From Escherichia coli (GTDB lineage Bacteria; Pseudomonadota; Gammaproteobacteria; Enterobacterales; Enterobacteriaceae): a stretch of DNA of 64,000 nt. The stretch lies in assembly GCF_013315695.1 (NCBI RefSeq), contig NZ_CP054353.1, one strand, 5' to 3'. The notes beneath the pieces were generated by a model that searched no databases, was not told the origin of the DNA, and worked only from the letters and a program-made list of their open reading frames with translations. This document shows, piece by piece, positions 2,623 through 27,460 of the stretch. The translations under genes and the position numbers were made by a program. The stretch's first letter is position 1, and each line of letters opens with the position of its first letter.

Positions 2623-2876
2623 TGCCACTCCTTTTTCACAGTTCCTTGTGCGCGCTATTCTAACGGGAGAAAAGCAAAATTACGTCAATATTTTCATAGA
2701 AATCCGAAGTTATGAGCCATCTCTGAGATAACATTGTGATTTAAAACAAAATCAGCAGATAAAAAAGTGTTTAATTCTATAAATTAACTCTGCATTATCG
2801 CAATTAAAAGGATGACAAATAGCATAACCCAATACCCTAATGGCCCAGTAGTTCAGGCCATCAGGCTAATTTATTT

Positions 2877-3269
2877 TTATTTCTGCAAATGAGTGACCCG
2901 AACGACGGCCGGCGCGCTTTTCTTATCCAGACTGCCGCTAATGTTGATCATCTGGTCCGGCTGAACTTCTCGTCCATCAAAGACGGCCGCAGGAATAACA
3001 ACATTAATTTCACCGCTCTTATCGCGAAAAACGTAACGGTCCTCTCCTTTGTGAGAAATCAAATTACCGCGTAGTGAAACCGAAGCGCCATCGTGCATGG
3101 TTTTTGCGAAATCAACGGTCATTTTTTTTGCATCGTCGGTTCCGCGATAGCCATCTTCTATTGCATGAGGCGGCGGTGGCGCTGCATCCTGTTTTAAACC
3201 GCCCGGGTCATCTGCCAACGCATAAGGCATGACAAGAAAACTTGCTAATACAATGGCCTGAAATTTCAT
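2877..3269 (-). CDS. ydeI: periplasmic OB-fold (YgiW/BOF family) protein YdeI
   Basis: 130-aa ORF with N-terminal signal peptide ([19 protein letters not shown]); synteny. Confidence 0.8.
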
Positions 3270-3634
3270 ACTGACTCCTTAATTGCGTTTGGTTTGACTT
3301 ATTAAGTCTGGTTGCTATTTTTATAATTGCCAAATAAGATTACTGCCAATTGTTATAAGGCATTTAAAATCAGGCAACTAGCTGTCAAATATTCAGAGAA
3401 TTTAACTCACTAAAGTTAAGAAGAAGATTAAAGAGTCTTAAACATATTTCAGAATAATCAGATTTATAAATTTGAAAATTATTATAACGGAAGGGTATAC
3501 AAAAAAAGTAATTTTGCTGGCGACTGCGAAACGGCATTCGCATTAGCGGTGAAGTTTGCCCTCGCCCAGCTGCTGCAATTACTGCTATAACGAGGCTGGT
3601 CTGGCGATAAATCCAGGCCAGCCATTGGTTGTGT

Positions 3635-5680
3635 TTATACGTTCAAGCCACGATGTTGCAGCATCGGCATAATCTGAGGTGCCTTACCGCGCCATTGTCG
3701 ATACAGGCGTTCCAGATCCTCGCTGTTACCTCTGGAAAGGATCGCCTCGCGAAAACGCAGCCCATTTTCACGCGTTAATCCGCCCTGCTCAACAAACCAC
3801 TGATAACCATCATCGGCCAACATTTGCGTCCACAGATAAGCGTAATAACCCGCGGCATATCCGCCACCAAAAATATGGGCGAAATAACTGCTGCGATAGC
3901 GTGGCGGTATAGCAGGAAGATCCATATTTTCCGCCACCAGCGCCCGCAATTCGAAATCATCGACATCCTGCATTGCTTCGTTTTCTTCCAGGCAATGCCA
4001 GCGCATATCGAGAAGTGCGGCGCTAAGCAGTTCGCTCATCTCATACCCTTTATTGAACAGGCTGGCATTACGCATTTTCTGTTGCAGTTCGTCAGGCATT
4101 GCTGCCCCGCTCTGATAATGCCGGGCGTAGCGAGCGAATACCTGCGGATGCGTTGCCCAGTGTTCGTTGATTTGCGACGGAAATTCGACAAAATCACGCG
4201 GCGTGTTGGTGCCGGAAAGCGTGGCATAACGCTGGCGGGCAAAAAGGCCGTGCAGCGTATGACCAAATTCATGGAATAAGGTTATTACATCATCCCAGAG
4301 TAACAACGCAGGCTCCCCAGCAGCGGGTTTCTGATAATTGCAGACGTTATAAATTACCGGGTGCGTTTCATTCAGCGTTGATTGCTCAACAAAATTGCCC
4401 ATCCATGCGCCGCCGCTTTTTGAATCACGGGCGAAGAAATCACCGTAAAATAACGCCAGCCCCACACCATTATGATCAAAAATTTCCCACACACGAACGT
4501 CAGGATGGTAGACAGGAATATCAAAACGTTCGACAAACTTAATACCGAAGAGCTGATTCGCAGTCCAGAATACGCCTTCATTCAACACCGTGTTTAATTC
4601 GAAATAAGGCTTGAGCTGCGCTTCATCGAGATCGAATTTATCACGTCTTACCTGCTCGGCATAAAATGCCCAGTCCCACGGCTGCGCGCTAAACCCGCCC
4701 TGCTGCTTATCGATAACCGCCTGTATGGAGGCTAATTCATCGCTCGCACGTTGACGCGCCGCTGGAACAATTTCCCGCATAAAGTTGAGCGCTGCTTCTG
4801 GCGTTTTTGCCATCTGATCGGCGATTTTCCATGCGGCATAATGAGGAAAACCAAGCAGTTTCGCCTGCTGCGCGCGGATCTCCACCAGACGTTGAATGAT
4901 AGCGCGGGTATCATTGGCATCATTTTTTTCCGCTCGCATCCAGCCCGCAGTAAACAGTTTTTCACGCGTCGCACGATCGCGCATTTCGGCAAGCGCCGGT
5001 TGTTGGGTGGTATTCAGCAGCGGAATCAGCCATTTGTTATCCAGACCTTTCTCGCGAGCCGCCTCTGCCGCCAGCACAATCTCTTGCTCACTCATTCCTG
5101 CCAGCTGCGCGATATCGTTCACAACCAGACCGCCGGATTTATTTGCTGCCAGTAACCGCTGGTTAAACTGGCTGGTCAGGGTCGCAGCTTCTGTATTCAG
5201 TACTTTTAATTTTGCTTTATCAGCTTGCGCAAGTTTGGCTCCGGCAAGGACAAAACGTTGATGAATCACCTCCACCAGGCGGATGGATTCACTATCAAGC
5301 CCCAGGGATTCACGGCGCTGCCAGACAGCATCTACCCGCGCGAATAATTCACCGTTCAGATAGATATCATTAGCCAGTTCCGCCAGTTCAGCGGAAAACT
5401 GTTCATCAAGACGCTGTAATTCATCATTGGTATGCGCCGCAGTCATCGCAAAAAAGACGCTGGTAACGCGGGTAAGTAATTCTCCGCTTTGTTCCAGTGC
5501 CAGAATAGTATTGTTGAAATCAGGCGTTTGCGAGTTAAGCGCGATGGCAGTAATTTCTGCCCGCTTTTGCAGCATTCCCTCATCGAATGCCGGGCGATAG
5601 TGATGATTGGCAATTTGATCAAAATGGGGAGCCAGATACGGCAGTGTGCTTTGCACAAGGAAAGGATTCATTGTTGTCAT
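3635..5680 (-). CDS. dcp: dipeptidyl carboxypeptidase II (M3 family zinc metallopeptidase)
   Basis: HEFGH zinc-binding motif; 681 aa when started at MTTMNPFLVQ; the ORF-track start is 22 codons further upstream. Confidence 0.9.
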   Translation of the reverse strand: MTTMNPFLVQSTLPYLAPHFDQIANHHYRPAFDEGMLQKRAEITAIALNSQTPDFNNTILALEQSGELLTRVTSVFFAMTAAHTNDELQRLDEQFSAELAELANDIYLNGELFARVDAVWQRRESLGLDSESIRLVEVIHQRFVLAGAKLAQADKAKLKVLNTEAATLTSQFNQRLLAANKSGGLVVNDIAQLAGMSEQEIVLAAEAAREKGLDNKWLIPLLNTTQQPALAEMRDRATREKLFTAGWMRAEKNDANDTRAIIQRLVEIRAQQAKLLGFPHYAAWKIADQMAKTPEAALNFMREIVPAARQRASDELASIQAVIDKQQGGFSAQPWDWAFYAEQVRRDKFDLDEAQLKPYFELNTVLNEGVFWTANQLFGIKFVERFDIPVYHPDVRVWEIFDHNGVGLALFYGDFFARDSKSGGAWMGNFVEQSTLNETHPVIYNVCNYQKPAAGEPALLLWDDVITLFHEFGHTLHGLFARQRYATLSGTNTPRDFVEFPSQINEHWATHPQVFARYARHYQSGAAMPDELQQKMRNASLFNKGYEMSELLSAALLDMRWHCLEENEAMQDVDDFELRALVAENMDLPAIPPRYRSSYFAHIFGGGYAAGYYAYLWTQMLADDGYQWFVEQGGLTRENGLRFREAILSRGNSEDLERLYRQWRGKAPQIMPMLQHRGLNV

Positions 5681-7338: not shown

Positions 7339-7515
7339 TTCATTTCCTCTCATCCCATCCGGGGTGAGAGTCTATTCGCCCCGCCTTATGGCTCATGCAT
7401 GCATCAAAAAAGATGTGAGCTTGATCAAAAACAAAAAATATTTCACTCGACAGGAGTATTTATATTGCGCCCGTTACGTGGGCTTCGACTGTAAATCAGA
7501 AAGGAGAAAACACCT

Positions 7516-7719
7516 ATGACGACCTACGATCGTAACCGTAACGCAATCACCACTGGCAGCCGTGTTATGGTTAGCGGCACCGGTCACACTGGCAAGATCC
7601 TGTCGATTGATACTGAAGGTCTGACCGCTGAGCAAATCCGCCGCGGAAAAACCGTAGTTGTTGAAGGTTGTGAAGAGAAACTGGCACCTCTGGACCTGAT
7701 TCGTCTCGGCATGAACTAA
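7516..7719 (+). CDS. ydfZ: small protein YdfZ (67 aa)
   Basis: 67-aa [24 protein letters not shown]...; good RBS (aggag) upstream; synteny. Confidence 0.8.
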
Positions 7720-7726
7720 GCGTGTG

Positions 7727-7757
7727 AATGCCGCCGATGGCGGCATTGCTTTTTTTA
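7727..7757. terminator. putative bidirectional rho-independent terminator between ydfZ and ydfI
   Basis: aatgccgcc gat ggcggcatt hairpin flanked by a T-run; ydfZ and ydfI are convergent. Confidence 0.5.
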
Positions 7758-9215
7758 CTTCACGGAATATTTCGCCACGGTCGCTTTCGCACCATGCGCT
7801 AATAAAGACAAGTACGCTTCCGTCACTTTTGCAGTAAACAAGCTATTGTCTGGCAAATCATCACCAAAGATCGCCTTAATCGCCAGCAATGACTGGACGC
7901 GCGCTTTCCCTTCGGCACTACTTTGTACAGCCTTCTGAATAACAGGTAACAGTGGGTCACTGATTTCTATCGGATTTCCCTGTTCATCAACACCACCGAC
8001 ATAACGCATCCAACCTGCGACGCCCAGCGCCAGCAGATCGAACTTGCTGTCATGCGCCAGATGCCAGCGAACAGAATCCAACATCCGCTGTGGCAATTTC
8101 TGGCTGCCATCCATAGCAATCTGCCAGGTTCGATGACGTAGCGCCGGGTTGCTATAGCGTTCAATTAATCGGTTAGCGTAATCTTGCAAATCAACGCCCT
8201 GCACTTTCAACGTCGGCGCTTGTTCCTGCAACATCAAGGCATACGCTGCATGACGATAATGTTCATCTTCCATGCAGTCATTAATGTGCTGATATCCGGC
8301 AAGATAACCCAGATACGCCAGGAATGAATGACTGCCGTTGAGCATGCGCAACTTCATCTCTTCATAAGGCAGCACATCACTAACCAGTTCGGCTCCCGCT
8401 TTTTCCCATTCCGGACGTCCGGCAACAAAGTTATCTTCTATTACCCACTGGCGGAAAGGTTCACAGGCAACGCCAGCAGGATCGCGCACACCGGTAAGTT
8501 GTTCGATTTTCGTCAGCATATCCTCTGTCACTGCGGGCACAATACGGTCCACCATTGTTGATGGGAAAGTCACGTTTTCTTCGATCCATTGTGCCAGTTT
8601 TACATCAACAGCTTGCGCGTAGGAAGTGACAACGTCACGCATAACATGACCGTTTTCTGGCATGTTGTCACATGACATGACGGTAAATGCGGGAAGTCCT
8701 GCCGCTTTACGGCGAGCCAGCGCCTCGACAATCACCCCTGTTGCAGTTTTCGGCTGGTGGGGATTTTGAACGTCGGCAACGACCATCGGGTGATCGAGCA
8801 TTAACTGTCCGGTCGCCGGAGAGTGGAAATACCCTTTTTCGGTGATTGTCAGAGAGACAATCGCGATTTGCGGTTCACACATCGCAGCCAACACGGTTTC
8901 TAAGCCATCAATCTGTACGTGCAAGGCTTTTTTAACGACGCCAACGACGCGAGCCGTCCACGCATCGGCCGACATTTCCGCAACGGTATAAAGATTATCT
9001 TGCTGTTGTAAATCGGCAATTTGCTGTTCGCCGCCGATTAAATTGACCTCATAATATCCCCAGTCACTGAAATGTTTTGTAGCAAGAATATCGGCATACA
9101 CGCCCTGATGCGCACGGTGAAATGCACCAAAGCCTAAATGAACAATTCTTGGGGCCAGGTTATTACGATCATAAACAGGGAGCGTCGCTTTTGCTGATAA
9201 CAAATTATTTCCCAT
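7755..9215 (-). CDS. ydfI: mannitol/fructuronate dehydrogenase-family oxidoreductase
   Basis: 486-aa ORF, long-chain mannitol dehydrogenase family by sequence character; synteny. Confidence 0.8.
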
Positions 9216-10587: not shown

Positions 10588-11372
10588 AATTCACAGGTGT
10601 TTTTTCCCATCCTGTGGTTTCCTTGGCGTTTTCTAGGTTTTTTCAGATAGTTGCATTTTTTAAAAAGCATCCTAAGTTCGATCTCAGTGTCTATCTGGGG
10701 CCTATTTCTGTCCCATATATGCCCCAAAAAAACTCCTCAACAGATAAGTAGTTTTTTCATGGAGTTACGCGTAAAATCAATAACGGCTGGAAATCATTCA
10801 ATACTCGCACTATCGAAAAATTTACCAGCCAACCGCAGCACGTTCTTGCATAAGGCGTGTCTGCGGTTTTTCAACTATTCAGATACATCACTCCCATCAC
10901 ATTCATTCCTCCGCATCAAAGGCATATAGGCTATATCACCTTGATATTTTTCTTCTTCAGATAAAAACTGTTATCTATGTATACTTTTAAACCCAATCCG
11001 TGTAGAGTCTCTGCATAAGATAGTTTGCAGTTGCCACTTCAGCTTGCGCCATAAACCGCCTGATTTTTGCCGCCATCTGTTAGCATTCCTGTATACCTGA
11101 AACGACAATGTTTATCTACGAACTTTAAGAACACCCAGGATAAAAATTGTCAACTATATCATATATAACACATTACTAATTCGAGGCTATATGAACAGCA
11201 TACTGATAATCACTTCGCTCCTTATCATATTCAGCATTTTTAGTCATGCTCTAATAAAATTAGGGATTGGCATATCCAATAACCCAGACAAAACCGATGT
11301 ATAAGTCAACATATCCTGAATCAGACATACAATATCGCAATGAAAATCAATAATATTTTAAGGAATATATTC

Positions 11373-11606
11373 ATGAAATCAAAAGACACCCTAAAGTGGT
11401 TCCCTGCGCAGCTTCCTGAAGTCAGAATTATCCTAGGGGATGCTGTAGTGGAAGTAGCAAAACAGGGAAGACCTATCAATACCAGAACATTGCTTGATTA
11501 CATTGAAGGAAACATAAAGAAAAAATCATGGCTGGATAACAAAGAATTATTACAAACAGCGATATCAGTTCTTAAAGACAACCAAAATTTAAATGGTAAA
11601 ATGTAA
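11373..11606 (+). CDS. ydfK: cold-shock-associated small protein YdfK
   Basis: 77-aa ORF MKSKDTLKWFPAQLPEVRIILGD...; long AT-rich 5' leader; adjacent to pin recombinase as in Qin. Confidence 0.6.
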   Translation: MKSKDTLKWFPAQLPEVRIILGDAVVEVAKQGRPINTRTLLDYIEGNIKKKSWLDNKELLQTAISVLKDNQNLNGKM

Positions 11607-11922
11607 TATAATAAACTTACTTTTTTATCATTTTTCCACTTTAACAACATTTTGCTCCACTTTTCCACGACCAAACAACTTGAAATCTGGTTAAAATAAC
11701 ACGCAACACTATTCTTCTTCCTTGAGTCCGCCCGGAACTCGAAAAACAAACCGAGTTAAAGCCATTTTTCACAAAATCGATTTTGGGTCTCACCAAAATT
11801 ACGGGGTTGCATACGCATTCGTTTATTTTCGAACGTGTACATACAAACATGCACAAAAATAATCAAAATTATTTTCTGAGATGCATTATGATATGAACAC
11901 CAATTTCGTATAGAGTCTCACT

Positions 11923-12513
11923 ATGTCTCGAATTTTTGCTTACTGTCGGATATCAACGCTGGATCAGACCACCGAAAATCAACGCCGGGAAATCGAAAGT
12001 GCAGGTTTTAAAATCAAACCTCAGCAAATAATCGAAGAACACATTAGCGGCTCAGCAGCAACCAGTGAGCGTCCTGGTTTTAACCGGTTGCTTGCTCGCC
12101 TGAAATGTGGTGATCAATTGATTGTGACAAAACTGGATCGCCTTGGTTGTAATGCAATGGATATCAGGAAAACAGTGGAACAACTGACCGAAACAGGTAT
12201 CAGAGTGCATTGCTTAGCATTGGGGGGCATTGACCTGACCAGTCCAACAGGAAAAATGATGATGCAAGTAATTTCAGCAGTCGCTGAATTTGAACGAGAC
12301 CTTTTACTTGAACGCACTCATTCCGGGATAGTAAGAGCCCGGGGCGCAGGGAAACGTTTTGGTCGACCACCTGTGTTAAATGAAGAACAGAAACAGGTGG
12401 TATTCGAACGGATTAAGTCAGGTGTAAGTATAAGTGCCATTGCCCGGGAATTCAAAACCTCGCGGCAAACCATTTTAAGAGCCAAAGCAAAACTTCAGAC
12501 ACCTGACATATAA
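11923..12513 (+). CDS. pinQ: serine recombinase (resolvase/invertase family)
   Basis: 196 aa; N-terminal catalytic domain with Ser in YCRISTLDQ; C-terminal HTH; position next to tail-fibre genes. Confidence 0.8.
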
Positions 12514-12740
12514 AAAATAATCTCGGTGTGAGATGCCTTACGTCTTCCAAGCCCCCTTCCTTGCCGTAAATGGAAAGATACATCTAATTATAGAATTTAT
12601 ATGTTTTACCCTACGGCAGTGCTGGCCATTCAATATCCTGTGCAGTTGACGTATCAACACGGTTCAGCAACACCCGATACTTCTTCCAGGCTTCCCGCAA
12701 CGAGGTTTCTTCCTCCGTTGCATATACAGCTCACCTTTTT

Positions 12741-13034
12741 TCACCCACGATTAACCAACAGCCAGACCAGCAGACACGCCACCACCGGCACAGCAAAATC
12801 CATCAGGCTTGCCACATCCCACGCACGCGGATCAAAACCGCCCCACCACGGCATATTCATACGCTTGCCATGCCCGAACATTTCAATCCAGCGATATTCT
12901 GCCTGGGTATGTTCACGCGCAATGAAGAACGTACAACCAGCTATCGCCCCGTAAGCCCAGTTTCCGGTAAAAAGACCAACCAGTACCTGCGCAGCCACAG
13001 CACAAAGTGCATGAAGGAAAGGTGTTATATCCAT
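12741..13034 (-). CDS. hypothetical small membrane protein (about 3 TM segments)
   Basis: 97-aa ORF with ATG preceded by AAGGAGG; three hydrophobic stretches; last gene of the stf operon. Confidence 0.45.
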   Translation of the reverse strand: MDITPFLHALCAVAAQVLVGLFTGNWAYGAIAGCTFFIAREHTQAEYRWIEMFGHGKRMNMPWWGGFDPRAWDVASLMDFAVPVVACLLVWLLVNRG

Positions 13035-13044
13035 TACGCCTCCT

Positions 13045-13749
13045 TTATCCGATATCGCTTCGGGAAACGGATAACAACTTTAATTCTGACTCAAGTTCAT
13101 CAACTCTTTCAGTCAGCTTCTGGATATGGTGAATCAGTGGAACAACCAGACGTTCGTACATTACACCTTCGGCAACAAGGCCATTGCTGGAAATGGTTTC
13201 CGGTGCATCATCTTCGTTGGCTGGTCGCCAGTGAACAAACTGAGGGGCAATTTCTCCTACTTCCTCGGCAATCAATCCATAGAATCCCCAGTCACGCCTG
13301 TCATTTTCGCATTGCGACCTGTACCACACAGGGCGCATCCTGAAAATGAGATCGGCGTGCTCTGAATCTATCGTCTCTACTGAATGTTTATAGCGGATAG
13401 ACGATGTTGACCGCAGCACAGACGAAATTGCAGGGTCAGGATTAAGATAAAGATTTGCCGCCGCTGTAGTTGTGCCCAATCCCCATAAATAAAACGCTTC
13501 ACGGCCAGTCAGCGGGTAAAAATCTCCGCCATAACGACCACTTTCCAGATCGTTCACTTCCACTTTGTTTTTCAGCTTATTATCAACTTCAGTTTTTGTG
13601 TATCTGGTGCTGATATCCTGCTTTGCACTGGCCATATCAGTCTGAAGCGTTGATACTTTTCCGTTAATAGAGGAAATATCTTCCTTTGCTTTACTAACAT
13701 CTCCCTTCAGCGTGGTGATGTCTCCCGGAATTACTGTTGATGTAGCCAT
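13045..13749 (-). CDS. tail-fibre-like protein: N-terminal coiled coil plus C-terminal intramolecular-chaperone-like domain
   Basis: 234-aa ORF; ATG with GAGG upstream; heptad-like N-terminus; C-terminal segment GFYGLIAEEV...GVMYERLVVPLIHHIQKL...LESELKLL resembles the self-cleaving chaperone domain of endosialidase-type fibres. Confidence 0.5.
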   Translation of the reverse strand: MATSTVIPGDITTLKGDVSKAKEDISSINGKVSTLQTDMASAKQDISTRYTKTEVDNKLKNKVEVNDLESGRYGGDFYPLTGREAFYLWGLGTTTAAANLYLNPDPAISSVLRSTSSIRYKHSVETIDSEHADLIFRMRPVWYRSQCENDRRDWGFYGLIAEEVGEIAPQFVHWRPANEDDAPETISSNGLVAEGVMYERLVVPLIHHIQKLTERVDELESELKLLSVSRSDIG

Positions 13750-13758
13750 TTCTCTACC

Positions 13759-14040
13759 TCACATCCAGCCACGAAGTTGATGCTCAACAGCAACCGCGTA
13801 TTCATCGAATAATGACGATATTTGCGTATCCTTAATAATGCGCACGTTTACAAAATATCCATCTTCCTTAACACATACCGGTTCGCCATCTTCAGTCAGC
13901 TCTCCGGTTTCTTTGTACACGTTACCTATCACATCAATCAGAATATCATCCTGCATCGACTCGTCATTATAATAGCCAATACTTCCCATAAAGGCCGAAA
14001 AGTCGGCCCTGTCGGCAAATTTGAGTGTTAAATCTTTCAT
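13759..14040 (-). CDS. hypothetical protein, possibly a tail-fibre assembly chaperone
   Basis: 93-aa acidic ORF; its ATG overlaps the reconstructed pre-IS1 stop of stf. Confidence 0.35.
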   Translation of the reverse strand: MKDLTLKFADRADFSAFMGSIGYYNDESMQDDILIDVIGNVYKETGELTEDGEPVCVKEDGYFVNVRIIKDTQISSLFDEYAVAVEHQLRGWM

Positions 14041-14246
14041 TAGATTGACTCCCCCATCTGAGCATCAGTCAATGCCTTGTGCCAAATACGCAGATTTCGA
14101 ACGTGTCCAAATAGGTGACGGTTGCCGGATGATGATTGACCACCAATATTAATGAAGCCTCCTGTATATTTGTGTTTTTTATAAGGAGAAAGGTGATGCT
14201 GCCAACTTACTGATTTAGTGTATGATGGTGTTTTTGAGGTGCTCCA

Positions 14247-14522
14247 GTGGCTTCTGTTTCTATCAGCTGTCCCTCCTGTTCAGCTACTGACGGGGTGGTG
14301 CGTAACGGCAAAAGCACCGCCGGACATCAGCGCTATCTCTGCTCTCACTGCCGTAAAACATGGCAACTGCAGTTCACTTACACCGCTTCTCAACCCGGTA
14401 CGCACCAGAAAATCATTGATATGGCCATGAATGGCGTTGGATGCCGGGCAACAGCCCGCATTATGGGCGTTGGCCTCAACACGATTTTACGTCACTTAAA
14501 AAACTCAGGCCGCAGTCGGTAA
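14247..14522 (+). CDS. insA: IS1 InsA
   Basis: 91-aa [26 protein letters not shown]... (zinc-finger InsA). Confidence 0.9.
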
Positions 14523-14944
14523 CCTCGCGCATACAGCCGGGCAGTGACGTCATCGTCTGCGCGGAAATGGACGAACAGTGGGGCTATGTCGGGGCTAAAT
14601 CGCGCCAGCGCTGGCTGTTTTACGCGTATGACAGGCTCCGGAAGACGGTTGTTGCGCACGTATTCGGTGAACGCACTATGGCGACGCTGGGGCGTCTTAT
14701 GAGCCTGCTGTCACCCTTTGACGTGGTGATATGGATGACGGATGGCTGGCCGCTGTATGAATCCCGCCTGAAGGGAAAGCTGCACGTAATCAGCAAGCGA
14801 TATACGCAGCGAATTGAGCGGCATAACCTGAATCTGAGGCAGCACCTGGCACGGCTGGGACGGAAGTCGCTGTCGTTCTCAAAATCGGTGGAGCTGCATG
14901 ACAAAGTCATCGGGCATTATCTGAACATAAAACACTATCAATAA
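14441..14944 (+). CDS. insB: IS1 InsB
   Basis: 167-aa ORF overlapping insA in the -1 frame, typical IS1 arrangement. Confidence 0.9.
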
Positions 14945-14954
14945 GTTGGAGTCA

Positions 14955-17228
14955 TTACCAAGGAGAAACTACCTTAGCACCAATATTACCGTTAACCACA
15001 ACACACAATTCTCGACTTTCTGTGAATCTAAAGCCGATAATGCTTTTTCTCTCTGGTCGTTCTATAACGCTTTTATATTCTATTTTAGTGCCTTTACCAT
15101 TTGTAATGATTGCGCGTGCTCCCAAAGATGTATACCCCAAATACATATAACTTTCATCTGCAATTTCAGTTGTATCTCCCGTAGTGGAAATATTAAGAAT
15201 ACGTGCGCTACCTTCTTTGTTTGGCGATTCATCCCAATTGGTATTAACTTCTGCTAATGAACTAATAGCGGGATTGCACCAATTTAGAGAAATGGGGACC
15301 GTTACAATATCGCTGGCGCGTGTTACAGGGGATGCGCCTGTTATAATAAACGATGAAGCGCATGCCCCACCTTCAACTTGAGGGGTCGCAATATAAATAT
15401 AATCATCCGCGCCAGTGCCCACTCCTTTTGCCGGGGCATACTGAACCATTCCACCTATCATATTTTCTGTATCAAGTGCCTTAATTGTCGCCTCAAAAAA
15501 GATCCATTTGCTTGCTTCATCTTTAACAGCCCTTGCAGTAATGCGATTAGCGGCACCACCCGTCTTATCAATAGATAAATCTGTCGTATTTAAGTAAGCG
15601 TCACCTAAGAATGTGTAGGTAGAACCATCATAGTTTTCAAATCGTAATCGGCATCTTAAATTTGGAGTGCCACTTTGCACCCTGCATGATATGGTTACAT
15701 ACTTTTCTCCGCCTGTTACATCAAAACCTTTACTGCCGGAAACGGTTACTATGTTAATCGCTGAAATTTGCCCTACCATTTCTGGTTTTAATGTAAATTT
15801 TGCGTACTGGAATCCGAAATCATCTACACCTGATGCACTTAAGATCATATTTGACGACTTGTTCCATTTAGTCGGATTTGTTGAATTGATTAGCAGGTTA
15901 GTTCTTTGCCCCTCAATAAGCAGGCCATCACGTTCAAATCGTGGCTCGTCAATGGCAGCCTCTGTCAGCACACCAGATTTATTAATGTAAGTTGCTTTCG
16001 ATGCGCGTTTAAACTTTACAATCTTGTCGCCAGGCATTGTTATTTCATCGTCGCCAATAACAATTTTTTTATATGATGGCGAAAAGCCCGTAATCATATC
16101 CAGTGAATCATTAAACGGTATCCACACATCGGGCAACGGCTGCAAAACTTGTTTATACGGCTCCGCTGCCTGGCTTGCATACTCTCTGGCTGCGTCTTCA
16201 CTTGCTTTAGCTGCTGTCTGGCTTGCTGCCGATGCTTGCGCCGAGTTCGCCGCCGCAGTCTCGCTCGCCTTTGCGTTGGTTTCACTGGTTTTTGCTGCTT
16301 TTTGACTGTTAGCTGATGCAGTGGCAGAAGCAGCCGCCGCGCTTGCAGAACTGGCTGCGGCACTCTCGCTTTGGGCCGCTGCATCCTGACTGCTTTTCGC
16401 CGCAGTTTCACTGGCTTTGGCATTCGTTTCGCTGGTCTTCGCTGCCGTCTGGCTGGACTTTGCGTTAGTTTCACTCGTCTTCGCAGCTTTCTGGCTGTTA
16501 GCCGCAGCAGTTGCTGATCCAGCTGCTGAAGTCGCAGAACCGGCTGCCGCGCTCTCGCTTTGGGCTGCTGCAACCTGGCTGTTTTTTGCCGCAGTTTCAC
16601 TGGCTTTGGCATTCGTTTCGCTGGTTTTCGCTGCCGTCTGGCTGGACTTTGCGTTGGTTTCGCTCGTCTTTGCGGCTGTCTCGCTATTTTTCGCGTTGGT
16701 TTCTGATTTTTTGGCTGCTGTCGCGGAGTTTGCCGATGCAGTCTTTGAGGTCGCTGCCGCCTGTGCACTATTAGCTGCATTCGTTTCTGAGGTTTTCGCC
16801 GCGTTCTTCGATGATGCCGCTGCAGTTTCGGATTTCTTTGCCGCCGCTGCGCTCTGAGAGGCGGCTTCAGCGTTGCGTGCCGCTTCTTCCACCATTTCCT
16901 CAAAACGACGCAATGCCTCCGGCATGACATCATCTTCCGTCATGGCACCGAGAAAATCATTCAGCGTACCTGGTCTGGAACCTTCATAGACGGTAATGGT
17001 TCCGGCATGTGAAGGCGGAAAACCTTCAACCAGCAGGGTGACGCTGTACTGGCCATACTCAACATCCATGCTGTAACGCCCGGCTTCATCCGGATTTTCA
17101 GAGGCCACTGTGTTGACCAGTACCGTGGTGCTGTTACGCTTTGCCTTCAGTTGAATAGTGCAGTTCTGTATTGGTTTTCCCGCACCATCTTTCAGCACAC
17201 CTGAGATTTTTACTGCTGCCATATCCAC
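14955..17228 (-). CDS. stf: side tail fibre protein Stf, C-terminus replaced by IS1 read-through
   Basis: N-terminus MAAVKISGVLKDGAGKPIQNCTIQLKA... matches lambda Stf as remembered; Ala/Ser/Thr-rich repeat shaft; stop codon lies inside the IS1 end. Confidence 0.8.
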   Translation of the reverse strand: MDMAAVKISGVLKDGAGKPIQNCTIQLKAKRNSTTVLVNTVASENPDEAGRYSMDVEYGQYSVTLLVEGFPPSHAGTITVYEGSRPGTLNDFLGAMTEDDVMPEALRRFEEMVEEAARNAEAASQSAAAAKKSETAAASSKNAAKTSETNAANSAQAAATSKTASANSATAAKKSETNAKNSETAAKTSETNAKSSQTAAKTSETNAKASETAAKNSQVAAAQSESAAAGSATSAAGSATAAANSQKAAKTSETNAKSSQTAAKTSETNAKASETAAKSSQDAAAQSESAAASSASAAAASATASANSQKAAKTSETNAKASETAAANSAQASAASQTAAKASEDAAREYASQAAEPYKQVLQPLPDVWIPFNDSLDMITGFSPSYKKIVIGDDEITMPGDKIVKFKRASKATYINKSGVLTEAAIDEPRFERDGLLIEGQRTNLLINSTNPTKWNKSSNMILSASGVDDFGFQYAKFTLKPEMVGQISAINIVTVSGSKGFDVTGGEKYVTISCRVQSGTPNLRCRLRFENYDGSTYTFLGDAYLNTTDLSIDKTGGAANRITARAVKDEASKWIFFEATIKALDTENMIGGMVQYAPAKGVGTGADDYIYIATPQVEGGACASSFIITGASPVTRASDIVTVPISLNWCNPAISSLAEVNTNWDESPNKEGSARILNISTTGDTTEIADESYMYLGYTSLGARAIITNGKGTKIEYKSVIERPERKSIIGFRFTESRELCVVVNGNIGAKVVSPW

Positions 17229-17230
17229 TC

Positions 17231-17262
17231 CACAAAAAAGCCCGCCTGAACCGGCGGGCTGT
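17231..17262 (-). terminator. putative rho-independent terminator downstream of lom
   Basis: minus strand agcccgcc ggttca ggcgggct followed by TTTTTT. Confidence 0.5.
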
Positions 17263-17286
17263 CATAACACTGTGTTACCTGGCTAA

Positions 17287-17886
17287 TCAGAATTTATAAC
17301 CGACACCAACGATGAAACCGTCAGTGCGCCAGTCGCCACTGCCGGAACCTTCATAAGCAATATCAATGGCCACGGATTCGGTCGGGTTAAACTGCACGCC
17401 AGCCCCCCATGCCAGAGACGTGTCGCTGTGGCGACCGTCATCACTTCCGGTCAGCACATCGTGCGTTTTCCCCTTGTTGTCAGTTACGCGGATATAATCT
17501 CCGGAGAAAGTCGAAACACGGCTGTAAGCCATACCCGCCATCGCATACGCGCTGAACCATTCATTCACGCGCACAGACGGCCCCACCATCACGCTGAACC
17601 AGCGGTTACGCACGGAATCTTCATGCCAGCGGGTATCGCTGTAACGGGTAAGCTGGCGATTCTTGTCTCCTGCATAGCTGAATGACGTCACCATCCCCAG
17701 TGTGTCCGTAAACTCATAACGGTATTTCACGTTAATCCCGTTCAGATCATCGCTGCCGGGAACGTTCGTCGAGGCATGAAGATACCCCGCGCTCAGCGTG
17801 GACTGATGTTCAGATGCCCATGCAGGCGCACCGGATACGGCCAGACAAATGGCTGCGGAAAAAATGGCGGCACAAACTTTACGCAT
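17287..17886 (-). CDS. lom: outer-membrane protein Lom (Ail/Lom family)
   Basis: 199 aa; signal peptide [24 protein letters not shown]; C-terminal VGVGYKF beta-barrel end. Confidence 0.9.
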
Positions 17887-17953: not shown

Positions 17954-18793
17954 TCAGCTGATACTGATGCCTGCGGTGGCTTTCTTCATCACCACAACCA
18001 GCAGATCGCTGATACTTGCTGTGGGATACCAGTCATTTACCAGCCATGCTGACACCGAAAACTCCAGCGTCATGTGACCGTGACCGGCAGGCATATCAAT
18101 AACGCCACTGTAAATCAGCGTATTATCCAGCGCGGTACGGTTATAAATTTCAGCACCGTTTTTCCGCACTATCAGACGGCATGAGGAGTAAATATCAGTA
18201 TGCTCTCTCTCATGTTTAGCGCCGCTGAATGCCACCGCCGGAATAACAATCTGCCGGTCAAACGGCTGATCGTCATAAACCCTGACGGTAATGGTCCCTG
18301 ATGGCCACCGTTCCGGTGCACGGGAGTCCCGGGGGAAAGCTTTGCCCACTGTTTTAACGAGATCGCCTTCAATCTGGTTCGCGGACAGTTTTCCCAGAAC
18401 CCGACAGTTCTCGTTAATCGTGACGTTGTTGAGCGTCCCGGAGTTCGCATTCACGTTACCACTGATATCCGCATTTTTAGCAGTCAGCTTTCCGTCCGGT
18501 GTCAGGGAAAATGCCGGTGGATTTCCACCACTGGTAATGGTGGGGGCCGTCAGGCGCTTCAGGAACACGTCGTTCATGAATATCTGGTTGCCCTGCGCCA
18601 CAAACATCGGCGTTTCATTCCCGTTTGCCGGGTCAATAAACGCGATACGATTGGCGGCAACCAGAAACTGACTCAGTTTGCCTTCCTCTGTATCCTCCAT
18701 GCTGAGGCCAATACCCGCGACATAATGTTTGCCGTCTTTGGTCTGCTCAATTTTGACAGCCCACATGGCATTCCATTTATCGTTGGCATCCTT
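17954..18793 (-). pseudogene. tail tip/host-specificity protein J, C-terminal about 280 codons only
   Basis: reads ...[40 protein letters not shown]...[12 protein letters not shown], lambda-J-like C-terminus; upstream part replaced by IS end at 18794. Confidence 0.8.
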
Positions 18794-18801
18794 TGTAGTG
18801 G

Positions 18802-21704
<2,903 letters not shown>

Positions 21705-21723
<19 letters not shown>

Positions 21724-22127
21724 TTTCCCGCAGAAACAGGCTCTGCAGGCCCGGCGTCATCTGCCTGTTCAGGGGCATTATTCACCACAAACTCAGACAT
21801 TCCGGACAGACGTAACACCACGTTTTCAGCCTGAGCAATTGCCTCCGTGGGCCAGGTGGTAAGCACTTCCTGCTCAATCTGCGTAATGGCTTCATTCATG
21901 GACGGCAGCTTTGTCTTCTGCGGATGGTTATGCCACAGAGACATCGCCACCAGAAACGCCCCGCCTCTGATAAGATCCTCTACAGACACCTGCAGGTTGC
22001 CGCTGGATTCAGCCTTTTTTTCCTGCTCTTTCAACCAGGCAAGATGCTCAATACGCTGCAGGGCTGACAGTTCAGAAAGCGTGACGGTCACGCCGTTATG
22101 TTCAAATGATTCTGTTTTCAGGAACAT
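21705..22127 (-). CDS. G: tail assembly chaperone G
   Basis: 140 aa; MFLKTESFEHNGVTVTLSELSALQRIEHLA...; overlaps T. Confidence 0.9.
21723..21729 (-). promoter_or_regulatory. programmed -1 ribosomal frameshift slippery site GGGAAAG (G to G-T)
   Basis: heptamer GGGAAAG on minus strand at the G/T overlap. Confidence 0.75.
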
Positions 22128-22142
22128 CGCTGACTCTCCGGA

Positions 22143-22883
22143 TTAACTGGCGGTGACGGTGATTTCTGCAACCGCAGCAAACTCACCATTACCGGATACA
22201 ACCGGAATGTTGACCTTGCCTGCAGCAACGCCGTTCACGGTGATGGTCATACCACTGACCGACACGGTGGCTTTTGTTTTATCCGCTGACACCGCACGGA
22301 AGCTCTTGTCGGTTGCGCCTTCCGGCTGGAAGGCCACGGTCAGCGTGGTGCTCTGCCCTTTCACTACGGAAGCACTGGCTGGCGTTACCGTCATGCCGGT
22401 GGCCGCTGTTACCGTGCTGCGATCTTCTGCCATCGACGGGCGTCCCACATTGGTGACCTTCACCGTGCGGGTGATCACTTCCTTCGCCGTCACCGCTTTA
22501 CCGATACTGCTGACCCAGCCACGGAACACATCGACCGTGCCGTTCGGGAAGCGGATTTTATAGGCACGGGTATCACCTTCATTAAACCACGCCAGCAGCG
22601 CCTGCTGCCCCTGCTCTCCGGGCATCCACGCCAGCGTGAAGCTGGTATCTCCGGCTGATTTCTGCCCCTGCCCGGTCGCAGTCCAGTCCGCATCCTCATC
22701 ATCGAGATAACTGTCGTCATAGGACTCAGCGGTCAGTTCGCCGGGCGTCAGGTCTTTAACTTTTGCCAGACGCGACCAGTCAACGTCTGAAAGCGGGTTC
22801 GCATAAGGGTCACCGCTCCCCTTATAAACCCACAGGGTGGTCCCGGCACCTTTCACCGGCATTACAGGATTTGGTACAGGCAT
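22143..22883 (-). CDS. V: major tail protein V
   Basis: 246 aa from [36 protein letters not shown]... Confidence 0.9.
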
Positions 22884-22890
22884 AGCGTCC

Positions 22891-23286
22891 TCACATTTCA
22901 TAGGTAATGACATAAGTCAGATCGGCTGAACTCCACAGGCCCGCATCATCGTCGCGCCGGTAGTCATAGCCACTGGCCACCATACTGGTGATCAAATCTG
23001 ACAGTGCCGGGATATCGCTCATCACCGGATAAATCCGGGACTCCATCCACGAATCCAGCTCTGAATCCGGCACCTGAGCAGGCAGGAAAACTTCAATATG
23101 CAGCTCCGCCTGCCAGGTATCGCTGTCCAGCTCTTCGCCCGTGTATTCAGCGCCGGTGAGATAAACGGCAATTGCCGGAAAATCTTCCTCATCAAAAACA
23201 GCGGGGCGACCATCAAAAAGCGTCGCCCCGGTGTCATGCTTCTCCAGTGCATCCAGTACGGCTGCACGGAGTTCAGTATGTTTCAT
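22891..23286 (-). CDS. U: tail terminator protein U
   Basis: 131 aa; [22 protein letters not shown]... Confidence 0.9.
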
Positions 23287-23861
23287 CGCTTTATTACCAT
23301 TCTCAGTTGATGCTGCAGCGCATAGCCCAGCTCTTTCGGAAGACGCTCACGCCGTATCCGTTCAATATTCTGTTTAAACGCCGTGGTCAGTGGCACCGCC
23401 ATCGGGATTTTCACCACATCAATGGGGTAACGGTTTTTCCCGGCCACACGCTGCATGACATGCCACCGGCCATTTTTCAGTTGCTGAATAAACGCGCCGG
23501 GAATACGACGGTTTCCCACCACAAGCACGCTGCCGCCACCTTTCAGGGATGAACGCTGCCCCTTTTTACGACGCCTGCGTCGGGACAGGACAACCCGCGC
23601 ATTACCCAGCTTGATTACGGGCAAATCCCCCCGGTTAACCTTGATTCTGGCCTGCGGATTTTTAACCGTGGCCCTTTTCAGCCTGGCCCTTTCCTTTACC
23701 AGTTTCCGGCGTACCTTTGTCTCACGGGCAACCTGTGACGCCGACTGCGATATCGCGGATGAAGCAACGCGGTTAATGGCCATTGCGGCGGCACCAGGCA
23801 CCGCCGTTTTGCTGATACGGCTGAGGTTTTCAACGGCCTGCTCAAGACCCTGTATGGCCAT
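23283..23861 (-). CDS. Z: tail completion protein Z
   Basis: 192 aa from MAIQGLEQAVENLSRISKTAVPGAAAMAINR... Confidence 0.85.
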   Translation of the reverse strand: MAIQGLEQAVENLSRISKTAVPGAAAMAINRVASSAISQSASQVARETKVRRKLVKERARLKRATVKNPQARIKVNRGDLPVIKLGNARVVLSRRRRRKKGQRSSLKGGGSVLVVGNRRIPGAFIQQLKNGRWHVMQRVAGKNRYPIDVVKIPMAVPLTTAFKQNIERIRRERLPKELGYALQHQLRMVIKR

Positions 23862-23917
23862 ACATCCCCCTTTCAACGGCCTGCTCAAGACCTTTTATGG
23901 CCATACATCCCCCTTTC
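23832..23917. repeat. 43-bp tandem duplication (2 copies, 2 mismatches) spanning the RBS, start codon and first 10 codons of Z
   Basis: AACGGCCTGCTCAAGACCCTGTATGGCCATACATCCCCCTTTC then AACGGCCTGCTCAAGACCTTTTATGGCCATACATCCCCCTTTC. Confidence 0.8.
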
Positions 23918-24269
23918 AGCGGCGACGGTTAACGGCAGGCGGAACGCCACGCCCAAGCCAGAGATGACAGCTTCCGCCATCATCCGGCGATACCCGGTCT
24001 ATCCAGAAGTTTTCCTCACCGATGGTCAGCGTGTCTCCACGCCGCAGCTGCCGCACCTCATCAGTCCGGACAAACAGGGACGGGCTGGAGCCTTCAACGC
24101 GCACGCCCTGTCCGGCATAGCTGATATTTTCAGGGTCATCAAAAACACCACGTATTACTGCGCCGGACTGCTCACCGGATGTCATGGTGGCTGACGTTCC
24201 CATGTACCCGCGTATCGTTTCATCGGCGCGGGCAATGGCAGCATCGAACAGGTTATCGAAATCAGCCAC
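23916..24269 (-). CDS. FII: head-tail joining protein FII
   Basis: 117 aa; MADFDNLFDAAIARADETIRGYMGTSA... Confidence 0.9.
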   Translation of the reverse strand: MADFDNLFDAAIARADETIRGYMGTSATMTSGEQSGAVIRGVFDDPENISYAGQGVRVEGSSPSLFVRTDEVRQLRRGDTLTIGEENFWIDRVSPDDGGSCHLWLGRGVPPAVNRRR

Positions 24270-24280
24270 AGCGCCTCCCG

Positions 24281-24676
24281 TTATTGCATTCTGGCCAGGC
24301 CACGTTCTGTCATTTCAGCTGCCACACCGGCAGAGACACGGAACGCCGTTCCCGGCAGCACAAATGCCACAGCCTCATCCCGCGTGGCGTGAAGTGCATC
24401 AGTATGCAGCGTCACCAGTGCCACAACCGTGACCAGATCAGCCGTATCAGTCACGGTATCCGGCTGCGCTGATACAACCTCATTTTCATGTCCGGTCAGC
24501 GCATTTTCCGGGCTGACAGATGTGTCCTGACCGGCAGCGTCATCCGTGTCATCAAGCTCCTCTTCCAGCTCTGCCACACGGAGCACCAGTTCTTCTTTCG
24601 TCCCCGTCAGGCTGACATCACGGTTCAGTTGCTCACCCAGCACCTGAAGACGGGCAATCAGTTCATCTTTCGTCAT
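24281..24676 (-). CDS. FI: DNA-packaging accessory protein FI
   Basis: about 131 aa from MTKDELIARLQVLGEQLNRDVSLTGTKEEL... Confidence 0.85.
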   Translation of the reverse strand: MTKDELIARLQVLGEQLNRDVSLTGTKEELVLRVAELEEELDDTDDAAGQDTSVSPENALTGHENEVVSAQPDTVTDTADLVTVVALVTLHTDALHATRDEAVAFVLPGTAFRVSAGVAAEMTERGLARMQ

Positions 24677-24717
24677 GGACTCCTCCACAAAGAGAAAATG
24701 GCCCCGAAGGGCCATGA

Positions 24718-25743: not shown

Positions 25744-25798
25744 AAAAAAATCCCGTAAAAAAAGCCGCACAGGCGGCCTTTAGTGATGAAGGGTAAAG

Positions 25799-26131: not shown

Positions 26132-26140
26132 AAACATCCC

Positions 26141-27440: not shown

Positions 27441-27460
<20 letters not shown>
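26141..27460 (-). CDS. C: minor capsid protein C (head protease); scaffold Nu3 shares its in-frame C-terminal part
   Basis: 439 codons from a GTG start (VTAELRNLPHITSMAFNEPLMLEP...); the ORF-track frame extends 45 codons upstream into B. Confidence 0.8.

Follow-up and report, generated by a model that had tools for sequence, protein, structure and literature searches.

A probable side tail-fibre cassette, interrupted by IS1, that closes the late operon in a Qin-site lambdoid prophage of Escherichia coli

Three minus-strand ORFs are found downstream of the main fibre gene stf in the 64,000-nt stretch of Escherichia coli DNA analysed here (the window), all of them where a preliminary description had located them. 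They code for a 93-aa acidic protein (13759–14040; PHROG 1361), a 234-aa protein assigned as a short distal fibre (13045–13749; PHROG 3299 over its C-terminal part) and a 97-aa small inner-membrane protein (12741–13034; PHROG 1443), whose gene lies 10 nt past the 234-aa gene and is the final gene of the late operon. The good ribosome binding sites attributed to them are present as the Shine-Dalgarno-like sequences GGGGGAG, GAGGTAGAG and AAGGAGG, respectively, and a simple promoter and terminator scan around the trio found no minus-strand promoter or terminator that would point to separate expression in a lysogen. Comparison with related alleles gives median dN/dS values of 0.20 for the 93-aa, 0.09 for the 234-aa and 0.12 for the 97-aa gene. 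This purifying selection on all three, together with the membership of each in a PHROG, identifies them as real genes.

The position assigned earlier to stf holds for its true 3′ end, which overlaps the start of the 93-aa gene, but not for the main body of the gene, which is split off by an insertion sequence. This IS1 copy (insA/insB; 14195–14959, plus strand), read directly from the sequence, is flanked by the 9-bp target-site duplication AAGGAGAAA at 14186–14194 and 14960–14968. It separates the 5′ part of stf (14955–17228, minus strand), recognised by Pfam, NCBIfam, PDB and BLASTP matches, from the displaced 3′ end (14040–14194, minus strand), recognised by its sequence and by the conserved terminal motif ...IGGQSSSGNRHLFGHVRNLRIWHKALTDAQMGESI that it encodes. 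The TAA stop codon of stf overlaps the ATG of the 93-aa gene in the sequence TAATG. The order of domains in Stf is a tail-attachment amino terminus (residues 3–132, matching Pfam phage_tail_N), an Ala/Ser/Thr-rich shaft, a domain similar to the RcGTA head spike fibre (residues ~405–645; PDB 6tb9, E 7.5e-5; NCBIfam GTA_spike_fiber, E 1.6e-16), then a hypervariable distal domain and, last, an invariant motif at the carboxyl terminus. The truncated Stf is identical to the reconstructed intact protein through residue 753 of 804, continues with 4 residues encoded by IS1 and retains most of the hypervariable distal domain. In E. coli GABEEC10 an otherwise matching locus is found without IS1, and its stf is intact and codes for 801 aa. 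Since IS1 removes the final 51 residues of Stf, invariant motif included, and cuts the trio off from the late promoter, the fibre cassette present in the window is probably inactive.

The other side of the trio is occupied by pinQ (11923–12513, plus strand), which codes for a serine DNA invertase according to family matches, and by a 111-nt 3′ remnant of a tail fibre assembly gene, tfa (12611–12721, minus strand), defined by sequence comparison. Homology to the K-12 Qin-type arrangement (ynfT-ydfK-pinQ-tfaQ 3′ end) ends at ~12722. The remnant beside pinQ is the sole Tfa sequence found, and none of the three proteins of the trio matches a Tfa family of PHROG, NCBIfam or Pfam; the Tfa-type genes expected next to a Pin recombinase are indeed replaced here. 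Both the IS1 copy inside stf and the tfa remnant had escaped the preliminary description.

The trio had been regarded as unusual cargo, a view that fails because the fibre operon of related phages and prophages contains these three genes almost invariably. Of 80 related E. coli prophage loci, nearly all show the order Stf, 93-aa protein, short fibre, 97-aa protein; in these IMG/VR loci the 93-aa gene is followed by the short fibre and then by a member of the 97-aa family in essentially all cases with enough flanking sequence, the short fibre being present as a 234-aa or a 346-aa allele. An identical gene order occurs in phages PhiR49_1 and HannyBb and in E. coli GABEEC10, and it is carried by viable lambdoid phages (a literature search on phage PhiR49_1 found no papers). 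At least 80% of the segment composed of pinQ and the trio is present in 282 of 5426 complete E. coli genomes. Some virulent phages of the T1-like, T5-like and 9g-like types also encode Stf, the 93-aa protein and a distal fibre side by side, the combination being found in Drexlerviridae (KarlJaspers), Seuratvirus (VogelGryff), Nonagvirus (ESCO3) and T5-like phages (EC142, IrisVonRoten). The fibre and the 93-aa gene occur without the second fibre in phage 21, PhiR41_1 and the rV5-like phage nimi.

The 93-aa product is a small acidic protein, as had been noticed (pI 4.2; 19 D+E versus 8 K+R). Its family is found on hundreds of E. coli contigs, and scans of viral contigs returned 2 loci with the Drexler-type 93-aa query and 3 with the T5-type one. 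The fibre stop codon overlaps the 93-aa start by 1 or 4 nt in 98 of 99 loci, and the upstream fibre ends in the motif HLFG...R(I/V/L)W in 95 of them. The 93-aa gene stays with this fibre type even where the second fibre is missing. It lies within a conserved junction block (13690–14120, minus strand) that runs from ~27 codons before the end of stf through the complete 93-aa gene to codon ~20 of the 234-aa gene. In a mosaic map of the 80 related prophage loci this block is kept in 78–80, the distal Stf domain matches in only 2 and the body of the short fibre in 43. The block is also ~90% identical in nucleotide sequence in the virulent Nonagvirus ESCO3, with the sequence on either side varying. 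The receptor-binding parts that flank the conserved junction block are swapped between phages. No Pfam or NCBIfam match was obtained for the 93-aa protein, and its alignment profile found nothing among PDB sequences. Comparison of this profile by hhalign with a 188-aa neighbour in Comamonas was not significant (E 0.05, probability 1%), the two proteins being related only through PHROG 18574, which both match. Judging from its gene arrangement, the 93-aa protein accompanies this fibre type as a small conserved partner; it is predicted to be translationally coupled to stf, and its role would be that of either an assembly factor or a joint component.

The 234-aa protein had been depicted as a stand-alone short protein with a heptad-rich amino terminus and a chaperone-like carboxyl terminus, and both features are borne out. 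It has an N-terminal docking-type motif, MATSTVIPGDITTLKGDVS, a coiled coil (residues ~8–62), a small tip (~70–115) and a Peptidase_S74 domain (116–234). The amino terminus, helical and heptad-like, weakly matches the coiled coil of the P22 gp26 needle, while the carboxyl terminus matches Pfam Peptidase_S74 (PF13884; residues 116–172, E 2.2e-5), the carboxyl terminus of DT57C LtfA (PDB 8hqz_d, E 1.2e-7) and MYRF (7dc3, E 0.023). Alignment places the predicted autoproteolytic Ser-Lys dyad at Ser116 and Lys121, within the sequence SSIRYK (codons at 13387–13404, minus strand) that aligns with the cleavage-site regions of MYRF and LtfA. The Ser-x4-Lys dyad is intact, S116 being nearly invariant and K121 invariant in an alignment of 11 sequences, and autocleavage before the domain that begins at Ser116 is predicted to leave a mature fragment of 115 residues. 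The short-fibre N-terminal motif M(A/V)TxTxIPxDIxxLK is common to several phage families, and is found also on proteins of 343–576 aa that bear real distal domains. The ~340 extra residues that Gp24 of IrisVonRoten and the EC142 protein have between the coiled coil and the tip-plus-chaperone part are missing from the 234-aa protein. Since its mature part is very short and the receptor-binding domains of the longer alleles are absent from it, it may contribute little to binding. A single-sequence AlphaFold model of the protein is of low confidence (pLDDT 41).

The explanation that we consider likely is that a Qin-site lambdoid prophage carries, as the last part of its late operon, a horizontally mobile cassette for a side (lateral) tail fibre, the trio being the downstream half of this cassette. 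The 234-aa protein would trimerise, helped by its C-terminal chaperone domain, and would then cut this domain off at Ser116. By analogy with the Gp22/Gp24 model of T5-like phage IrisVonRoten, the remaining 115-residue coiled-coil stub would dock with its amino terminus first onto the distal end of Stf, to give a two-part or branched fibre. The 93-aa protein, made in step with Stf, would act on the conserved Stf tail. Since part of Stf matches the RcGTA head spike fibre, the receptor of the fibre is probably a surface polysaccharide. Comparison of the lists of organisms shows that virulent phages carrying the fibre module lack the 97-aa gene, and since these phages have the same fibre, the 97-aa protein would be dispensable for fibre building. 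It would rather be a membrane accessory of temperate phages, placed beside glycan-binding receptor-binding proteins, whose most plausible effect is to modify or mask a surface glycan or to exclude related phages in some other way.

The 97-aa product is a membrane protein (GRAVY 0.52), as had been proposed, although the three transmembrane spans then assigned to it are only plausible, two or three fitting its sequence. Its hydrophobic stretches are a long one at residues ~5–39 and a second one at ~75–95, and the record of phage 21 annotates 2 membrane spans. The family amounts to 344 clusters at 50% identity and features the conserved motif RE-x2-QAEYRWI...NMPWWGGFDPR-x-W, with H8, R40-E41, QAE and W72 as conserved residues. 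No Pfam or NCBIfam match was found for it, its alignment profile detected nothing among PDB sequences and it matched none of the defence families described in PADLOC, in which no match was obtained for any protein of the trio, the 97-aa protein being searched at E values up to 1. A function as holin was considered and rejected: only 1 of 61 family members has a weak match to Phage_holin_8 (E 3.6e-3) and the gene, located past the fibre genes, is far from where this prophage type has its lysis genes.

A relative of the 97-aa protein is found alone immediately after the tailspike gene of the P22-like phage Gally, another adjoins a pectate-lyase-type protein in one phage contig, and in Comamonas and Chelativorans the gene lies immediately 3′ of a fibre gene whose product has the same type of C-terminal motif. 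Relatives are encoded inside kps-type capsule loci in ~22 alphaproteobacterial species, many others are solitary in unrelated, non-phage chromosomal contexts, and further ones belong to virulent Aeromonas phages and to the early regions of Aeromonas phages. Several distant relatives are found on contigs too short for their neighbourhood to be read. The kps-type neighbourhood makes a role in surface polysaccharide a candidate function of the 97-aa protein, against which the solitary relatives and those in early regions of Aeromonas phages speak. The accessory module for receptor modification or superinfection exclusion evoked in the preliminary description provides the best lead for the 97-aa gene, but it is inapplicable to the 93-aa and 234-aa genes, since both belong to the fibre.

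The strongest competing account, possible although we do not favour it, views the 97-aa protein as a classical membrane protein of superinfection exclusion or immunity, unrelated to surface glycans, that blocks DNA entry or periplasmic steps as do T4 Imm and HK97 gp15. Its small size, its inner-membrane nature, its position as last gene beside receptor-binding genes and its restriction to temperate phages among the carriers of the fibre module are all in line with this proposal. Exclusion genes often adjoin receptor-binding genes, as found for llp of T5 and for cor of T1, phi80 and N15. However, matches in PADLOC, Pfam and NCBIfam are lacking, relatives occur in virulent Aeromonas phages as well, and the kps-locus and non-phage contexts are not predicted by a pure anti-phage function, which is thereby disfavoured. 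A more ambitious reading, unlikely in our estimate, is that the 97-aa protein represents an undescribed family of small inner-membrane proteins in the biogenesis of surface polysaccharide (kps-type capsule or related glycan), which temperate phages whose fibres or tailspikes bind glycans would have acquired in order to alter or hide the receptor glycan, either on the lysogen or on the cell undergoing lysis, and that the 93-aa protein is a new class of dedicated partner for fibres with lectin-like ends that replaces Tfa.

The 234-aa protein could alternatively be a trans-acting chaperone rather than a structural fibre, its S74 domain helping Stf or another fibre to fold and being discarded afterwards. 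This is quite unlikely, even if BASEL records label homologues of the protein as “putative lateral tail fiber chaperone” (a literature search for the phrase “lateral tail fiber chaperone” found nothing) and its predicted 115-residue mature part shows no recognisable receptor-binding domain. S74 domains are known as cis-acting C-terminal modules (PMC4728585), the N-terminal motif is shared with longer proteins having real distal domains, and the homologous protein of IrisVonRoten is modelled as a distal fibre (PMC11990801). In addition, phage 21 and rV5-like phages produce a fibre of this type although they have no 234-aa gene, which argues that folding of Stf is independent of it.

An assignment of all three genes as morons or defence cargo, unrelated to the fibre, is very improbable. 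The end of the late operon is a known moron position, where the trio is indeed located, and the 93-aa and 97-aa proteins have no annotated function. Nevertheless, the 93-aa and 234-aa genes co-occur with the fibre type in at least five phage families, virulent ones included, and are tied to it by the start-stop overlap and by the conserved junction; PADLOC matches are nil. Hardly credible is the earlier proposal that the trio remains from an invertible host-range switch driven by Pin, as its alternative receptor-binding cassette: pinQ lies ~230 bp from the 97-aa gene with the tfa 3′ fragment in between, and HannyBb likewise juxtaposes the cassette and a DNA invertase, but the whole 64-kb window has 0 matches to the Gin/Hin/Cin/Pin crossover consensus TTNTCNNAAACCNNGGTTTNNGANAA with up to 3 mismatches, inverted repeats within 11300–17400 are at chance level only (best 22 nt at 73%), the fibre genes are all co-oriented without a second Stf C-terminal segment, the complete cassette is found in phages lacking any nearby invertase, and the pinQ-tfa fragment is simply the K-12 Qin end.

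The assignment of the trio to a side tail-fibre cassette removes a false lead, the genes being neither exotic cargo nor a Pin switch. The cassette is common and exchangeable and is present in both temperate and virulent coliphages. The fixed junction block between swappable receptor-binding parts defines a boundary that is useful for engineering or predicting host range across lambdoid, T1-like, T5-like and 9g-like phages. If the more ambitious reading of the 97-aa protein is true, its gene would represent a new kind of gene for lysogenic conversion or receptor masking, with a genetic link to fibres of the lectin type.

The cassette occupies the genomic position of the lambda-type Stf-Tfa systems of Ur-lambda and K-12 Qin (stfQ-tfaQ), downstream of J and lom where the late operon ends, and its Stf has the same N-terminal tail-attachment domain (Pfam phage_tail_N), whereas the distal Stf half and the assembly partners belong to another type. 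RcGTA head spikes, as Westbye et al. are said to have found in 2016, bind capsule polysaccharide. The spike fibre Rcc01080 (PDB 6tb9) is similar to a domain in Stf, but this domain belongs to a head spike in RcGTA and is found here inside a tail fibre, followed by the hypervariable distal domain. Like the S74 domains of endosialidases, T5 pb1 and MYRF, that of the 234-aa protein follows a trimeric coiled-coil segment and ends in a helix; the difference is that S74 domains usually end long fibres or tailspikes, while here the domain makes up half of a 234-aa protein. LtfA and LtfB, which form the branched lateral tail fibres of the T5-like phages DT57C and DT571/2 (PMC4728585, PMC10713586), are likewise two separately encoded fibre proteins, the second of which is thought to be attached to the first, and carry C-terminal Peptidase_S74 domains with predictable cleavage sites. 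In DT57C, however, the S74 domain is present on both proteins, whereas the proximal fibre of the cassette has a lectin-like end without S74, and a small gene of the 93-aa type is not described in these two papers.

The closest described counterpart of the cassette is the Gp22-Gp23-Gp24 set of IrisVonRoten (Bas32), composed of a proximal and a distal lateral fibre with a small protein encoded between them. The two systems have the same gene order and the same overlap of the fibre stop with the start of the small gene. Stf is 47% identical to Gp22 over 763 aa, terminal motif RHLFGH...R(I/V)WHK..LTD included, the 93-aa protein is 38% identical to Gp23, and the 234-aa protein matches Gp24 by BLASTP at its amino terminus (E 5e-4) and in the chaperone domain (E 1e-7), with the motif MATSTVIPGDITTLK corresponding to MVTKTVIPTDITKLK. 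Gp24 was modelled with AlphaFold-Multimer as a distal “T-shaped” fibre on the proximal Gp22, which bears a galectin-like C-terminal domain (PMC11990801). Gp24 is a 574-aa protein with two receptor-binding domains, whereas in the 234-aa protein the cleavage site is preceded by only a coiled coil and a tip of ~45 residues, the two domains of a T-shaped distal fibre being absent. The IrisVonRoten set belongs to a virulent T5-like phage devoid of a 97-aa gene, while the cassette described here is that of a temperate lambdoid phage and includes this gene.

The window contains a lambdoid prophage of E. coli that occupies the Qin site and is flanked by ydfI, truncated ydfJ, ynfT, ydfK and pinQ. Three minus-strand genes separate stf, coding the side tail fibre Stf, from pinQ. 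In the stf to pinQ direction they code proteins of 93 aa (13759-14040), 234 aa (13045-13749) and 97 aa (12741-13034), spaced by 9 nt and then 10 nt. The preliminary description of this trio was accurate: each ORF is preceded by a Shine-Dalgarno-like sequence, the 93-aa product is acidic (pI 4.2) and the 97-aa product hydrophobic (residues ~5-39 and ~75-95). All three are real and common genes, whose median dN/dS against related alleles is 0.20, 0.09 and 0.12, respectively. The 93-aa and 97-aa proteins belong to PHROG 1361 and PHROG 1443, while the match of the 234-aa protein is to the C-terminal 240 of the 1385 positions in PHROG 3299, a fibre profile. The trio had been regarded as unusual cargo, but it is nearly universal in the fibre operon of related prophage loci and phages. 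The order Stf, 93-aa protein, short fibre (the 234-aa protein or longer alleles), 97-aa protein is also found in phages PhiR49_1 and HannyBb, and megablast matches extend across the cassette region in IdasGreatGrand, Tritos and 2G7b (a sequence match, gene order not being inspected). Of 80 IMG/VR prophage loci retrieved with the 93-aa protein, essentially all that have enough flank show the 93-aa gene followed by a short fibre and a member of the 97-aa family; their short fibres share the same N-terminus and have two main alleles, of 234 and 346 aa. Of 5426 complete E. coli genomes, 282 cover at least 80% of the segment formed by pinQ and the trio. The trio is thus a near-invariant element of this operon in related phages, the outcome that the preliminary description itself had named as speaking against its reading.

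The reading of the region as a remnant of a Pin-type host-range switch was rejected: no match to the Gin/Hin/Cin/Pin crossover consensus was found in the 64-kb window at up to 3 mismatches (a threshold that, by a hand check, would admit gixL and hixL), inverted repeats in 11300-17400 are at chance level, the fibre genes are all co-oriented, and complete cassettes exist in phages without a nearby invertase. A 111-nt remnant of the tfa 3' end (12611-12721) lies between pinQ and the 97-aa gene, and homology to the K-12 Qin type (pinQ plus the tfaQ 3' end) stops at ~12722. Here lies an old recombination joint, at which a plain Qin end of K-12 type, made up of pinQ and the tfa stub, meets a different fibre cassette. 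The joint is also found in phage HannyBb, and megablast matches beginning at the query start (window position 12560) suggest its presence in Tritos and PhiR63_1.

Like the tfa remnant, a further feature was absent from the preliminary description: an IS1 (14195-14959) lies within stf, bordered by a target duplication of 9 bp, AAGGAGAAA, at 14186-14194 and 14960-14968. Stf is interrupted 51 codons before its end and the shortened ORF closes with 4 IS1-encoded residues, while the true 3' end of stf is found at 14040-14194, where its stop codon (TAA) overlaps the 93-aa start codon (ATG). The prophage of E. coli strain GABEEC10 is identical to the window over 11300-14191, lacks the IS1 and codes an intact Stf of 801 aa. 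Since the insertion removes the last 51 Stf residues, among them an invariant motif, and cuts the trio off from the late operon, the cassette is probably inactive in the window strain. The trio genes themselves are intact and identical to their GABEEC10 counterparts. Note that the head and tail structural region (18610-32289) gives no alignment with the GABEEC10 prophage, while both ends align at 97-99% identity; the two prophages are mosaics with a common fibre end, lysis and regulatory regions. The Ala/Ser/Thr-rich repeats of the stf shaft (16024-16933) also generate several long spurious ORFs in other frames of both strands, such as an arginine-rich one of 279 aa (16094-16933, minus) and one of 146 aa (16417-16857, plus), which are repeat frame artefacts and no genes.

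The modular anatomy of the cassette was defined by placing the 80 related prophage loci onto the window. The Stf N-terminus and shaft (15920-17228) are matched in ~72 of them (at ≥80% identity), the next ~180 Stf codons (~15320-15860) in 35 and the distal ~120 codons (~14960-15260 plus 14120-14194) in only 2. There follows a junction block (13690-14120) that runs from the final ~27 codons of stf through the 93-aa gene into the first ~20 short-fibre codons; it is matched in 78-80 loci and is ~90% identical at the nucleotide level in the virulent Nonagvirus ESCO3. The body of the 234-aa gene (13045-13690) is matched in 43 loci, the remainder having the 346-aa allele, and the 97-aa gene (12741-13034) in 63-66. 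Stf tail types and short-fibre alleles occur in reassorted combinations across the loci. As the conserved joint sits between exchangeable receptor-binding parts, we infer that the Stf tail, the 93-aa protein and the short-fibre N-terminus may work together physically.

The 93-aa family is found in 169-179 phage records, directly behind a tail fibre gene in every record inspected. Its carriers are lambdoid phages (including phage 21); Drexlerviridae (e.g., KarlJaspers); Dhillonvirus; Nonagvirus and Seuratvirus (e.g., ESCO3, VogelGryff); T5-like phages (e.g., EC142, IrisVonRoten); and rV5-like myoviruses (e.g., nimi). In 95 of 99 loci the final 45 residues of the upstream fibre carry HLFG...R(I/V/L)W, with the fuller consensus IRIGGQxxxGxRHLFGH(I/V)RN(F/L)RIWHKxLTDxQ, and in 98 the ATG of the 93-aa gene overlaps the fibre stop by 1 or 4 nt. 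The fibre-like third genes of this set all begin with M(A/V)TxTxIPxDIxxLK whatever their length (225 to 576 aa). Because the 93-aa gene accompanies the fibre in phage 21, PhiR41_1 and rV5-like phages, which have no second fibre, it is tied to the proximal fibre type and not to the second fibre. AlphaFold (33-sequence alignment) confidently predicts a small alpha/beta domain (pLDDT 85.6), for which a BFVD fold search returned only uncharacterised phage proteins; there was no match in Pfam, NCBIfam or PDB sequences. Judged by its strict genetic coupling to the conserved-tail fibre, independent of the variable receptor-binding surface, the 93-aa protein could be an assembly factor for the conserved Stf tail domain or a component of the joint. 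In Pantoea and Comamonas (L127 at 7484-7999, L133, L137) the gene preceding the 97-aa homologue codes a protein of 171-188 aa, whose N-terminal ~90 residues in the Comamonas representative (L133) match PHROG 18574, the second family of the 93-aa protein. The longer protein may be the small partner in a fused or extended form; direct profile comparison of the two proteins was not significant (E 0.05).

The suspected chaperone-like domain of the stand-alone 234-aa protein was confirmed. Pfam identifies a Peptidase_S74 intramolecular chaperone domain at residues 116-172, and residues 109-222 match the C-terminus of DT57C LtfA (PDB 8hqz_d, E 1e-7) and MYRF. Aligned longer relatives keep K121 without exception and S116 nearly so (SSIRYK), and by sequence these two residues are the family's Ser-x4-Lys dyad. 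The first 60 residues are helical with a heptad-like pattern, and the segment just ahead of the predicted cleavage site (~70-115), together with the chaperone domain, recurs C-terminally in proteins of other, unrelated fibre architectures (P0036, P0042, P0045). In our reading, the protein would be a minimal fibre in four parts, a docking motif followed by a coiled coil, then a small tip and finally a self-cleaving chaperone, whose predicted cleavage would yield a mature product of 115 residues. Relative to the window allele, 5 of 20 distinct full-length 234-aa alleles (L058, L062, L072, L073, L075) have an in-frame stop; they are probably the shorter C-terminal variants of 223-229 aa of the protein search.

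Among phages with the fibre module, the 97-aa gene is present in temperate ones only. The 70 phage records that match the protein are lambdoid, P22-like, one phage-plasmid and Aeromonas phages, with no Drexlerviridae, T5-like or 9g-like phage among them; as it is missing from these fibre-module phages, the protein is apparently dispensable for fibre construction. The family (344 clusters at 50% identity; 80 species in a scan of one genome per species) matched no Pfam entry and conserves H8, R40-E41, Q44-A45-E46 and W72. A family gene stands alone in the tailspike gene to int interval of the P22-like phage Gally (L098, 3501-3788), which in P22 is the usual place of O-antigen conversion genes. 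The gene lies immediately 5' of a pectate-lyase-type protein gene in a metagenomic phage contig, and in Comamonas and Chelativorans directly after fibres with the same type of C-terminal motif. Other relatives stand alone or sit in early regions of Aeromonas phages. In ~22 alphaproteobacterial loci, mostly of Sphingomonadales, the homologue is found within a kps-type capsule locus. Among them are L108, L140, L143-L146, L155, L159, L166, L171, L181, L182, L187 and L195, with the match at ~8001-8290 in most of these and at 4109-4360 (L143), 3233-3475 (L155), 3257-3526 (L159), 7529-7804 (L166) and 2836-3144 (L108). Its neighbours are a co-oriented Poly_export gene ~50 bp upstream, KpsF at ~2.2 kb and KpsC/KpsS at ~5.3 kb; a direct KpsS-type neighbour matches NCBIfam NF050054. 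No description of such a small membrane protein in kps-type loci was found with the tools used. That the 97-aa protein is a classical exclusion protein is a serious rival explanation. Its tailspike and fibre neighbours and the kps-type loci suggest an inner-membrane role connected with surface polysaccharide, and with such a role the protein could, in a temperate phage, alter or mask the receptor. The family thereby provides one testable lead.

Stf residues ~405-645 match the RcGTA head spike fibre (PDB 6tb9, E 7.5e-5; NCBIfam GTA_spike_fiber). The latter binds capsule polysaccharide, hence a glycan receptor is the most likely fibre target. The closest known system is that of the T5-like phage IrisVonRoten: its Gp22 shares 47% identity with Stf over 763 aa, its Gp23 shares 38% with the 93-aa protein, and its Gp24 is matched by the 234-aa protein at the N-terminus and in the chaperone domain. 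AlphaFold-Multimer models in the second BASEL paper (PMC11990801) have the distal fibre Gp24 attached to the proximal fibre Gp22, whose protruding galectin-like C-terminal domain is proposed as an additional receptor-binding domain; the portions of that paper used here do not discuss the small Gp23 and its role. Note that the proximal fibre is named Gp22 in its Fig 12 legend and Gp23 in its main text; the genome record assigns Gp22 to the fibre (796 aa) and Gp23 to a 92-aa protein homologous to the 93-aa one. The first BASEL paper describes lateral fibres of small siphoviruses and T5-like phages built from one or at least two proteins, and LtfA/LtfB of DT57C are a genetic precedent for a branched fibre (PMC4728585, PMC10713586). 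The cassette, with its two abundant small components, is a two-part lateral fibre cassette of an already known kind.
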